Shown here one piece after another: positions 42,056 through 44,280 of a stretch of 64,000 bases of DNA. A program made the translations under genes and the position numbers. Origin of the DNA: an uncultured Actinomycetes bacterium (lineage in GTDB: Bacteria > Actinomycetota > Acidimicrobiia > Spongiisociales > DATADW01); contig CAWGRK010000006.1 of NCBI GenBank assembly GCA_963824995.1, positions 132,273 through 196,272 of the forward strand, written 5' to 3'. Every line of letters starts with the position of its first letter. Position 1 is the stretch's first letter. Below the pieces are notes generated by a model. The model did not search any database, was not told the DNA's origin, and was given only the letters and a program-made list of their open reading frames with translations.

Positions 42056-42084
42056 TTGACGGTGACCCGGCGGGGTGGCACACT
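42056..42084 (+). promoter_or_regulatory. Sigma-A-type promoter of the riboswitch-osmC-metY transcript
   Basis: TTGACG - 17 bp - CACACT with TGG extension. Confidence 0.6.
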
Positions 42085-42101
42085 CCCCGCCACTACAACG
42101 C

Positions 42102-42198
42102 GCTTATCCAGAGCGGTGGAGGGACGGGCCCTTTGAAGCCGCGGCAACCGGAAGCTCCCACCAGGAGCAACACCGGTGCCAATGCCCGATCGATGAGC
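42102..42198 (+). ncRNA. SAM riboswitch (SAM-I clan, probably SAM-I/IV variant lacking P4)
   Basis: CTTATCCAGAGCGGTGGAGGGACGGGCCCTTTGAAGCCGCGGCAACC...GGTGCCAATGCC...GATGAG; P1 GCTTATC/GATGAGC; upstream of metY. Confidence 0.9.
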
Positions 42199-42261
42199 AG
42201 CCGACAGCGGGACTCCCGCTCGAGGCGCCGGAGAGCGCGTCGAGAACAGAGGAGGACCGTT

Positions 42262-42366
42262 GTGATCGATAGCTGGCACCATCCTTTCCGCTCCCCCGCG
42301 TGTATCTGTCCTTTTGTGATGTGTGCGCGCTCTCGGGCGGCCGTCCCGTCGGCCGCGGCGGGCTGA
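42262..42366 (+). CDS. Cys-rich leader peptide (34 aa, MIDSWHHPFRSPACICPFVMCARSRAAVPSAAAG)
   Basis: GAGGAGG RBS 6 nt before GTG; three TGT Cys codons and one Met; 42304-42313 is the exact reverse complement of 42434-42443, the osmC SD region. Confidence 0.7.
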   Translation: MIDSWHHPFRSPACICPFVMCARSRAAVPSAAAG

Positions 42367-42394
42367 AGCCCCGCCGGTCGCCCGAGAGCATTTT
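42329..42394 (+). terminator. Strong hairpin in the leader (attenuator or terminator-like)
   Basis: GCTCTCGGGCGGCCG (42329-42343) pairs with CGGTCGCCCGAGAGC (42375-42389), followed by ATTTT. Confidence 0.5.
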
Positions 42395-42445
42395 CCGCAG
42401 CGCGGGGCTGCGCCATTTCAATTTGCCTCTTGGAAGGACAGATCC

Positions 42446-42964
42446 ATGACGATCACAACCCGAATCAACGATGTCGATCTGGCAACCGTTGCCGGTCTGG
42501 TGGGCAATATCCGTACCGATCCGGAGCACGCCAAGACCACATGGCAGGCGTCCGTGAGCTGGCAGGGCGCCTTCCGGAGCGAAGCGCGGGTGAGAGATTT
42601 CGACCCCATCCAGTCCGATGAGCCGGCGGCGCTGGGCGGGACCGACACCGCCCCCAACCCAGTCGAGCAGGTGCTGGCGGCGTTGGGGCACTGCCTCGCA
42701 GTCGGTTACGCCGCAAACGCCAGCGCCGAGGGGATCGGGATCACCGAATTGACCATCGACCTGGAAGGCGATCTCGACCTGCACACCTTCCTCGGGTTGG
42801 CCGATGGCCACGCTGGGTTCGACGGCATCCGCGCCACGGTTCGTCTCAGCAGCGACGCCGATCCCGAAGCCATCGCTGCCCTCCACCGAAACGTCGTCTC
42901 CACCTCACCGGTCGGCCACACCCTCGGCCGGGCAGTTCCGGTGGATGTCACTCTGGACCACTGA
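42446..42964 (+). CDS. OsmC/Ohr family protein with a single Cys
   Basis: [27 protein letters not shown]; second Cys position reads TSPV. Confidence 0.88.
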
Positions 42965-42981
42965 TCGAGAGGAGAAACCCA

Positions 42982-44280
42982 GTGAGCGACTATCGATTCG
43001 AGACCCTCCAGGTCCACGCCGGACAAGAGCCGGCTCCGGGGACCAATGCTCGGGCGGTCCCGATCTACCAGACCACGTCGTACAACTTCGACGACAGCGA
43101 CCACGCAGCCCGGCTCTTCGGGCTGCAGGAGTTCGGGAACATCTACACCAGGATCATGAACCCGACCACCGATGTCTTCGAGAAGCGCGTGGCGGCGCTC
43201 GAGGGTGGTGTGGCGGCGGTGGCGACTTCCTCTGGGCAGGCGGCGCAGCTCACCACCTTCACCACGCTGCTCGAGACGGGCGATGAGATCGTCAGCACCA
43301 GCTACCTGTACGGGGGCACCTACAACCAGTTCAAGGTGGCTTTCCCCCGTCTCGGCATCAAGGTCGAGTTCGTCGACGGCGACGATCCCGAGGATTTCGA
43401 GTCGAGGATCACCGACCGGACGCGTGCTCTCTACCTGGAGACGATCGGGAACCCGAAGTACAACGTGCCCGACTTCGAGGCCATCGCCGAGGTCGCCCAC
43501 CGCAACGGGATCCCCCTGGTGGTGGACAACACCTTCGGAGCAGCCGGGTACATCTGTCGCCCCATCGAACACGGCGCCGACATCGTGGTCCACTCGGCCA
43601 CCAAGTGGATCGGCGGGCACGGGACCTCGATCGGAGGGGTGATCGTCGACTCGGGCAACTTCGATTGGCGGAGTGGCAAATTCCCGGTGTTCACCGAGCC
43701 CGCCCCCGGGTACCACGGTCTCAACTTCGGGGAGGTGTTCGGGCCCGACGGTCCGTTCGGCAACATCGCCTTCGCCATCAGGGCCAGGGTCGAGGGTCTG
43801 CGGGACCTCGGTGCCTGTCTATCGCCGTTCAACGCCTTCCTCTTCCTCCAGGGACTGGAGACGTTGAGCCTGCGGGCACAGCGCCACATGGACAACGCAG
43901 CCGTACTGGCCCCGTGGCTGGACCAGCACCCCAGGGTCACCTGGGTCTCGTACCCGGGCCTCCCCAGTCACCCCTACCACGAGAAGGCGAAGCAGTACCT
44001 CCGCAACGGGTTCGGATCGGTGCTCTCCTTCGGGATCGCCGGGGGATACGAAGCCGGCAAGCGGTTCATCGACCAGGTACATCTGGCCTCCCATCTGGCC
44101 AACGTCGGTGACGCCAAGACCCTCGTGATCCACCCCGCCTCGACGACCCACCAGCAGCTCACCGAGGAGGAGCAGACCTCAGCCGGGGTCACACCCGACC
44201 TGGTCCGCATCTCGGTGGGTATCGAGCACATCGATGACATCAAGGCCGATCTCGACCAGGCGCTGGAGGCTGTGTCCTAG
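42982..44280 (+). CDS. metY: O-acetylhomoserine sulfhydrylase (aminocarboxypropyltransferase)
   Basis: [30 protein letters not shown] (PLP Lys), [15 protein letters not shown]. Confidence 0.95.

Follow-up and report, generated by a model that had tools for sequence, protein, structure and literature searches.

A SAM-I riboswitch and a candidate cysteine/methionine-sensing reading frame in the leader of an osmC-like gene of Acidimicrobiia

The osmC-metY leader and its SAM-I aptamer

Contig CAWGRK010000006.1 of an uncultured Actinomycetes bacterium (assembly GCA_963824995.1; Acidimicrobiia, Spongiisociales in the GTDB lineage) was analysed over a stretch of 64,000 nucleotides (nt), positions 132,273 to 196,272, hereafter called the window. 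It contains a gene for an OsmC-family protein that is directly followed by metY and preceded by a leader of about 250 nt. This leader carries a riboswitch aptamer for S-adenosylmethionine (SAM) of the SAM-I class, a small open reading frame (sORF) with its own Shine-Dalgarno (SD) sequence, and a hairpin (S1) and a further helix (S2) located between the middle of the sORF and the osmC ribosome-binding site (RBS) (Table 1). The arrangement is, on balance, likely to be a composite device, in which an aptamer devoid of helix P4 is joined to a translational attenuator of the LEU-element or polycysteine-sORF kind that senses the transfer RNAs (tRNAs) of cysteine (Cys) and methionine (Met). Such a leader would probably let the cell sense both SAM and the sulfur amino acids. 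An earlier reading made from the letters of this DNA alone (the sequence-only reading) had proposed a SAM riboswitch in series with a Cys leader peptide; it is partly supported, being largely right in spirit and in need of the corrections given below.

Table 1. Coordinates (in the window) of the leader elements, the controlled genes and the flanking genes
Feature	Position	Strand	Description
Putative promoter	42056-42084	+	TTGACG 42056-42061, 17-nt spacer, CACACT 42079-42084
SAM-I aptamer without P4	42101-42199	+	RF00162, 67.2 bits (gathering score 44.4), E 1.7e-13
Platform adjoining P1	42204-42263	+	Hairpins Hp1 (42206-42220) and Hp2 (42219-42244), alternative helix B (MFE fold)
SD of the sORF, GAGGAGG	42249-42255	+	Best anti-SD duplex in the leader, -12.2 kcal/mol
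Leader sORF	42262-42366	+	GTG 42262 to TGA 42364-42366, 34 sense codons, peptide VIDSWHHPFRSPACICPFVMCARSRAAVPSAAAG
Anti-SD strand in the sORF	42304-42316	+	Pairs with 42431-42443
Candidate sensor codons	42319-42324	+	ATG 42319-42321, TGT 42322-42324; TGT 42322 is the invariant Cys/Met position
Hairpin S1	42329-42389	+	Arms 42329-42339 and 42379-42389 in the minimum free energy (MFE) fold; sORF stop (42364-42366) inside
Helix S2	42367-42409	+	42367-42374, directly after the sORF stop, pairs with 42402-42409
osmC RBS	42431-42448	+	GGAAGGA 42432-42438, ATG 42446; paired to 42304-42316 in the MFE fold
OsmC-family gene, first regulated gene	42446-42964	+	172 amino acids; Pfam PF02566, 6.3e-18
metY, O-acetylhomoserine/O-acetylserine sulfhydrylase	42982-44280	+	PF01053, 2.3e-143; TIGR01326, 705 bits (cutoff 495)
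NAD-binding/DUF2867 protein	40441-41934	-	Flanking gene, divergent
Class I SAM-dependent methyltransferase-like protein	44299-45075	-	Flanking gene, convergent

The aptamer, assigned to the SAM-I clan in the sequence-only reading, was recognised by an Infernal (cmscan) search with the Rfam models as RF00162 (clan CL00012), this being the sole match at gathering level in the 64-kilobase (kb) window; between positions 41900 and 42600, nothing credible besides SAM was returned at E<=10. The positions of helix P4 are deleted in its alignment to RF00162, and the four-way junction with P4 inside P1 is lacking, P1 being followed instead by hairpin Hp1.

Relatives of the leader were sought in 80 loci carrying a homologous osmC-like gene, which were gathered in one scan of species-representative genomes and all searched with Rfam. 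Of these, 27 have a SAM-I aptamer of 62-77 bits at a distance of 180-300 nt upstream of osmC; most of the 27 are labelled Acidimicrobiia, and the uniformly long spacer between aptamer and gene suggested a conserved content. Comparison of these leaders showed that 24 of the 27 aptamer loci carry the same module of sORF, S1 and S2. Together with the window they form the 25 "module loci" used for the counts that follow, and four further modules (L013, L027, L051 and L069, such handles designating single loci) were found by motif, giving 29 modules in total. A regular-expression scan detected no second copy of the module in the 64-kb window. All module-linked aptamers lack P4, as judged by their length (81-123 nt), and most of them are followed by a hairpin within a few nt of P1; in L057, the aptamer has P4 (134 nt) and the sORF module is absent. 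In L072, a second SAM-I aptamer (positions 2033-2115, minus strand, 67.2 bits) lies about 540 nt upstream of the one in the osmC leader, and presumably controls a divergent gene.

The promoter that had been proposed in front of the aptamer gained partial support from the closest relative, L075 (95% identity, best OsmC segment). Similarity between both sequences starts abruptly at CTGCCTTGACGG (about 42051) and is near-perfect onward, with no conservation upstream, and the TTGACG and CACACT elements are kept. A consensus scan, however, called no sigma-70-type promoter at 42056-42084.

The leader reading frame and its Cys/Met position

The unannotated 34-codon frame pointed out by the sequence-only reading is indeed SD-led, its GAGGAGG sitting fifty nt past the aptamer and its start lying about 170 nt past the putative promoter. 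In the modules, the C-terminal half of the sORF holds a near-invariant block, NGC UCY CGG GYG, that specifies S-R-V/A. When the start codon with the best SD was chosen in the interval between aptamer and block, blind to frame, it turned out to be in frame with the block, with the frame open, in 24 of the 25 loci. The distance from start to block varies among the loci, with 13 values in the range of 48-96 nt, every one of them a multiple of 3. The window itself is a tie case in this choice (TTG 42260 versus GTG 42262). As another candidate start, the ATG in the 3' strand of P1 was discarded, being in frame in only about 8 of the 25 loci, which is the chance level. On the strength of this comparison the sORF is a real, conserved reading frame, and we infer that it is translated.

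It is scarcely credible, in the light of these data, that S1 simply serves the SAM riboswitch as terminator or sequestor while the sORF either arose by chance in GC-rich DNA or codes for a functional micropeptide. Long ORFs often arise by chance in such GC-rich sequence, and S1 is followed in the window by AUUUUCC, but this U-run is absent from L075 and others, and 24 of 25 SD-led starts fall in frame with the block. Neither the N-terminal sequences of the sORF peptides nor their lengths (15-45 codons) are conserved, which makes a functional micropeptide unlikely, and the peptide gave no Pfam match. An intrinsic terminator, as in attenuators of the trp type, was likewise rejected: the U-run is confined to the window and not kept even in L075, and the terminator scan returned only a weak site of 5 base pairs (bp) at 42400-42413, within chance expectation.

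The invariant Cys/Met position of the sORF lies just before S1. Codon -3, located 9 nt before the hairpin-embedded Ser codon and 7 nt before the hairpin base, is TGT in 18 and ATG in 7 of the 25 loci (TGT in 20 and ATG in 9 of all 29 modules), with no other codon found. Cys or Met is also specified by codon -4 in 11 and by codon -5 in 10 of the 25 loci. Over the eight codons that precede the block, 67 of 200 (33%) are Cys or Met codons, compared with 23 and 7 in the other two frames; Cys and Met account for 0.5% each in the codon-usage background, which consists of 38 neighbouring osmC/metY genes of related loci, with verified osmC and metY frames. TGT and ATG have no base in common at any codon position, and their common denominator is therefore the amino-acid class. 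The Cys-only sensor of the sequence-only reading, based on three TGT codons, must consequently be amended. The window does have all three codons (42301, 42307 and 42322); of these, 42322 alone is universal, 42301 being a Pro codon in L075, and the conserved position accepts Cys or Met. The description of TGT as the disfavoured Cys codon was accurate, since the neighbouring genes use TGC 40 times and TGT 8 times, whereas the Cys codon at -3 is TGT in 18 cases and TGC in none. This preference could reflect either selection for a codon that is decoded slowly or a constraint at the RNA level. The peptide of the window has C-I-C and M-C and no CC; some relatives have CC or CCC.

The constancy of codon -3 also bears on the explanation that the sORF is a SAM-controlled relay, that is, an upstream open reading frame (uORF) without amino-acid sensing, whose translation only unfolds the structure or keeps Rho off the 250-nt leader, and in which TGT and ATG are by-products of RNA constraints. 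Riboswitch-controlled uORFs with such roles are documented for Mycobacterium tuberculosis (PMC11260477, PMC12810186), and the leader has several properties that would suit a relay: a helix adjoining P1 (helix B, see below) can sequester the sORF RBS, the block is conserved at the nucleotide level, and S1 is followed by no conserved U-tract, so that any termination must be Rho-dependent. A relay would nevertheless leave unexplained why two codons unrelated in base sequence alternate at one in-frame position in 29 of 29 modules, why two unrelated types of leader in front of this gene also carry Cys/Met codons, and why the module stands without an aptamer in L013 and L027. It is accordingly regarded as rather unlikely.

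Long-range pairings and coupling to SAM

Hairpin S1 had been drawn in the sequence-only reading exactly where the MFE fold places it, and it is conserved with compensatory changes. Its 5' arm is the conserved block and its 3' arm reads CRCCCGRGAGC; 249 of 250 cells are paired, 4 of 10 pairs are changed on both sides, and none of 500 shuffles reaches the observed value. S1 spans 52-85 nt in each of the 25 loci; in 24 of them it encloses the sORF stop, 9-28 nt ahead of its 3' arm. One of the covarying pairs amounts to a synonymous UCU/UCC change and another one to Val/Ala, and therefore the RNA helix, not the peptide, explains the S-R-V/A sequence. The fold is however more complex than the single hairpin of that description, since it also includes S2 and the helix that sequesters the sORF RBS. 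Across the family, the nucleotides from the stop codon onward pair with a stretch located 10-25 nt past the S1 3' arm. In combination with S1 this has the strand order of an H-type pseudoknot, although an alternative fold is equally conceivable.

RNAalifold applied to MAFFT alignments recovered only S1 and the core of Hp2, with no consensus for helix B, S2 or the osmC RBS helix, because the variable spacers align poorly. The long-range pairings were therefore evaluated by comparing the duplex energies of cognate and non-cognate partners, with permutations. For S2, the mean energy was -19.98 kcal/mol for cognate versus -16.38 kcal/mol for non-cognate partners (0 of 20000 permutations as low), and the window (WIN, AGCCCCGC/GCGGGGCU) differs from L075 (GGCUCCGC/GCGGAGCC) by two compensatory double changes. 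For the pairing of the sORF 5' part with the osmC RBS, the values were -15.86 and -13.47 kcal/mol (2 of 20000 permutations as low), the cognate RBS being also better than the reversed one (p=0.011). Helix B, which can join 42204-42210 to 42257-42263 and CUCC (42213-42216) to GGAG (42251-42254) and thereby sequester the SD and start of the sORF, gave -16.10 versus -14.16 (3 of 20000 permutations as low), with a compensatory change from ACAGCGG/CCGUUGU in the window to ACGGCGG/CCGUCGU in L075. Controls with mismatched elements had no cognate advantage in 5 of 6 cases, so that the co-evolution of the three pairings cannot be put down to shared base composition; the remaining control, segment 3a with the osmC RBS, had a mild advantage (64 of 5000 permutations) for which no explanation was found. 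A further candidate, a relay pairing of the 3' arm of Hp2 (GAGCGCG) with the 5' flank of S1, was rejected: it extends over 9 bp in the window and 4-7 bp in the loci compared by eye, and by the same inspection the Hp2 arm does not track the changes in the S1 flank.

The unusually invariant stem sequences of S1 and the strongly co-evolving, pseudoknot-like S2 might also be taken for a second ligand- or protein-binding RNA domain, which the sORF merely overlaps, as in a true tandem riboswitch. This is very improbable. There is no meaningful Rfam match in 42200-42445, where the best non-SAM hits have E values of 0.38-9.4 and remain far below the gathering scores, and the conserved frame, the SD and the stop at the start of S2 argue for ribosomes traversing the region.

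The pairing of the sORF with the osmC RBS is the link that would turn ribosome position into gene control. As stated in the sequence-only reading, ATCTGTCCTT at 42304-42313 is the exact reverse complement of 42434-42443; this sequence and its complement have 2 occurrences in the window, versus 0.04 expected from 100 shuffles. The G-U extension amounts to three pairs in the MFE fold instead of two (U-G, U-G and G-U, through 42314-42316/42431-42433), resulting in a 13-bp helix, and the osmC start has to be moved from 42447 to the ATG at 42446. The covariation of anti-SD and SD that was to be expected is found both in the permutations reported above and in the compensatory change from CCUU/AAGG in the window to CCUC/GAGG in L075. 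In addition, the close relatives L041, L064 and L070 have three different complementary sequences for the osmC RBS. When a ribosome positioned at codon -3 was simulated by masking, the predicted unpaired probability of the osmC RBS in the window increased from 0.13 to 0.41, while the mean accessibility in the family went from 0.43 to 0.51 (p=0.004). These models thus support RBS unmasking in the window and in some of the other loci, and it may extend to the rest.

In the favoured composite reading, a short, SD-led leader ORF would be translated until the Cys/Met codon enters the A site, at the point where the leading edge of the ribosome meets the base of the GC-rich S1/S2 fold. Going by the dimensions of the ribosome footprint, a ribosome with codon -3 in the A site would have its entry channel at the base of S1 and would cover about 27 nt upstream, including the anti-SD strand. 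S1 and S2 would meanwhile hold together the strands of the sORF 5' part and of the osmC RBS. Under scarcity of Cys-tRNA or Met-tRNA, the ribosome would dwell on the sensor codon and cover the anti-SD strand, leaving the osmC RBS free; with both tRNAs plentiful, it would proceed to the UGA inside the fold and leave, so that the osmC RBS would be masked again. SAM would most likely favour the helix adjoining P1 that hides the sORF RBS, meaning that at high SAM no ribosome would open the fold.

The polarity of this last step is suggested by L065, which lacks Hp1 and Hp2 and in which the sORF SD overlaps the 3' strand of P1, a geometry that favours repression of the sORF by SAM and thus an AND-like logic. 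The reverse arrangement, an OR-like gate, has its own merits. There, Hp1 would be a SAM-stabilised peripheral helix of the aptamer comparable to P5 of SAM-IV, high SAM would keep the sORF RBS open for the sORF to monitor Cys/Met, and when SAM is scarce the aptamer's 3' junction (GCCYGA...GAG) would invade the S1 5' arm and open the fold without translation. The absence of P4 from the module-linked aptamers and the hairpin that follows P1 in most of them agree with it, SAM-IV having such a hairpin 3' of P1 (PMC6890682), and it would account for the sequence conservation of the S1 arms. The predicted pairing of the aptamer 3' segment with the S1 5' arm, a link that would confer the OR-like logic, reaches -18.1 kcal/mol in the window, but no more than 12 of 25 loci have the S1 arm within the top 5% of partner windows, and when the best partner of the P1 3' strand was sought, this arm came first in only some of the loci. 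Moreover, in the 7 loci with a U-A to C-G change in S1, the aptamer segment shows no matching change and the pairing ranks poorly, a fraction of 0.24-0.65 of other windows pairing better in 6 of these. L065, for its part, predicts that SAM switches the sORF off, and visual inspection gave no pseudoknot partner for the P3 loop. The OR-like gate is for these reasons considered improbable.

Several observations weigh against the composite reading or reduce its reach. The stalled ribosome that the sequence-only reading had free the osmC RBS does so in the window model, but the family effect is modest: the increase does not significantly exceed that produced by a control mask placed at the start of the sORF (p=0.10), roughly half of the loci are unchanged, and an effect is predicted in only about 8 of 24. 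Compared with shuffled RBS sequences, the pairing reaches z < -2 in only 4 of 24 loci. Constraints for UG-rich RNA could contribute to the TGT/ATG pattern, and the nucleotide-level conservation of the block includes its third positions. A single sensor codon falls short of the runs typical of classical attenuators, and the loci are not phylogenetically independent. Finally, the AND logic of low SAM and low Cys asserted earlier was not reproduced by naive folding, which gave the same accessibility of the sORF RBS with the aptamer locked or free, with no consistent difference.

The OsmC-like target, known systems and variant leaders

The divergent and convergent orientation of the flanking genes limits the regulated unit to osmC-metY. 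The product of MetY is homocysteine, and the name of its family includes cysteine synthase activity, a chemistry that fits control by Cys and Met; the amino acids at the candidate sensor position are the products of the controlled pathway. The sequence-only reading had placed both genes under the leader, and this applies to the osmC-like gene, whereas metY directly follows it in only 14 of the 27 aptamer loci, at least 3 others being cut by contig ends. The common target is therefore the OsmC-like gene. For its product, 2515 homologues were counted at E<=1e-10, of which the best named one, from an Acidimicrobiia metagenome-assembled genome, shares 94% identity; against NF041052, "OsmC-related (seleno)protein", it scores 74 bits, below the cutoff of 95. 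The protein has a single Cys, in LGHCLAV; classical OsmC/Ohr proteins presumably carry their second Cys at the position occupied here by SPV. The gene is found behind three different leader designs, each with a Cys/Met sORF, which suggests that the OsmC-like protein takes part in sulfur amino-acid metabolism.

Two sensors in series are reportedly found upstream of metE in Bacillus clausii, where tandem riboswitches for SAM and adenosylcobalamin form a logic gate; SAM-II/SAM-V is reportedly another tandem of this kind. Both such tandems and the window leader would exert two-input control on a methionine gene, with the difference that the second sensor would here be a translating ribosome instead of an aptamer.

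The attenuator half has its closest counterparts in two actinobacterial systems. In the LEU element of leuA (Seliverstov et al. 2005, PMC1262725), a leader ORF is combined with either a pseudoknot or an alternative hairpin, the regulatory codons lie in a region that forms a base stem with the SD of the gene that follows, and a classical terminator is missing; all these traits have equivalents in the window leader. The differences from that description are one fixed Cys/Met codon (plus neighbours) in place of a run of Leu codons, unrelated sequences, a distribution mainly in Acidimicrobiia, and the SAM riboswitch in front. The leaderless polycysteine sORFs of mycobacteria, exemplified by Ms5788A, are those for which a stalled ribosome was demonstrated to block an RBS-sequestering structure (Canestrari et al. 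2020, 10.1101/834739); they share with the proposed mechanism the stalling at Cys codons, the opposition to a structure at the RBS of the 3' gene, and a target in sulfur amino-acid metabolism. By comparison, the window sORF is not leaderless, being SD-led and preceded by some 160 nt of transcript; none of its Cys codons are consecutive, 9 of 29 modules have Met instead of Cys, and a riboswitch is combined with it.

For the SAM-dependent half, the M. tuberculosis uORFs governed by B12 (ppe2, PMC11260477) and by the Mbox (pe20, PMC12810186) resemble the window leader in that the first RBS past the aptamer belongs to a small conserved uORF, on which downstream expression would here likewise depend. 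They differ from it in that the ligand is here SAM and end-product codons occur at a fixed site, and the geometry of termination-reinitiation is missing, the sORF stop lying 80 nt before the osmC ATG.

The components are of known kinds; what is apparently new is their combination, together with the single candidate Cys/Met sensor codon at a fixed position and the OsmC target. The sequence-only reading was not aware of such stacking having been described, and a search of the literature on SAM riboswitches, Acidimicrobiia, Met/Cys leader ORFs and leader peptides of Actinobacteria, with most subscription journals outside its coverage, likewise returned no account of a Met-sensing leader peptide, of a Cys/Met leader peptide placed behind a SAM riboswitch, or of this motif. 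It can be tentatively proposed that these leaders constitute an undescribed two-input class, widespread in Acidimicrobiia, that carries a SAM riboswitch and a Cys-/Met-tRNA leader peptide on one pseudoknotted fold, would contain the first Met-codon leader-peptide sensor, and has as primary target a one-Cys OsmC-like protein, thereby implicated in sulfur amino-acid metabolism. Leader peptides and riboswitches are usually seen as alternatives, and here both lie on one transcript and appear to share a fold. If true, this would represent a natural integration of a cofactor signal (SAM) with charged-tRNA signals (Cys and Met). A fixed single-codon sensor at a set distance from a pseudoknot would also be a clean system for the study of pause-based sensing and would provide a candidate Met-sensing leader peptide, and the leader would offer a functional lead for a large and unstudied OsmC subfamily.

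In L013 (2835-2990) and L027 (2855-3000), the module has no SAM-clan aptamer at E<=0.1 and its sORF is reduced to 15 codons (M-[CR]-C-T-C-S-R-V-V...), and the sORF module is therefore separable from the riboswitch.

Divergent leaders were also encountered. L049 (2735-3000) and L072 (2734-3000) have, behind the same aptamer, a leader with two extra hairpins, whose sORF contains R-S-P/I-G (AGA UCU/UCC ...) and ends in R-C-[HR]-M-S(S)-stop, with Cys and Met codons at the stop and not before the hairpin. Near-identical leaders without a SAM aptamer precede the osmC homologue in L017 (2700-2990), L019 (100-390) and L045 (2720-3005), from bins labelled Acidobacteriota and Acidimicrobiia. These start with a promoter-like TTGACT/TACCTT pair and a near-leaderless sORF, MKA..C-A-M-C-SHGADP, followed by a strong intrinsic terminator (11-bp GC hairpin and U-run) and a second sORF, MTHLISNRCTCPRPEA, which has a C-T-C motif and whose Cys-codon region pairs next to the osmC RBS. 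Frames with CC or CCC occur upstream of osmC, with neither aptamer nor module, in several Actinomycetes loci (L002, L010, L037, L048, L068 and L080), at a frequency that a rough estimate puts close to chance.

Two loci have peculiarities of assembly or binning. In L075 (3001-4900), the osmC match is split and no ORF of at least 100 amino acids exists where tblastn places metY, disruptions that are probably frameshift errors of the assembly. L069 (140-300), cut upstream by the contig end and with metY adjacent, has the sensor tract M-C-M-C-M-T-S-S-R-V on a contig binned as Kiloniellales (Alphaproteobacteria), a placement that may result from a binning error or from horizontal transfer.

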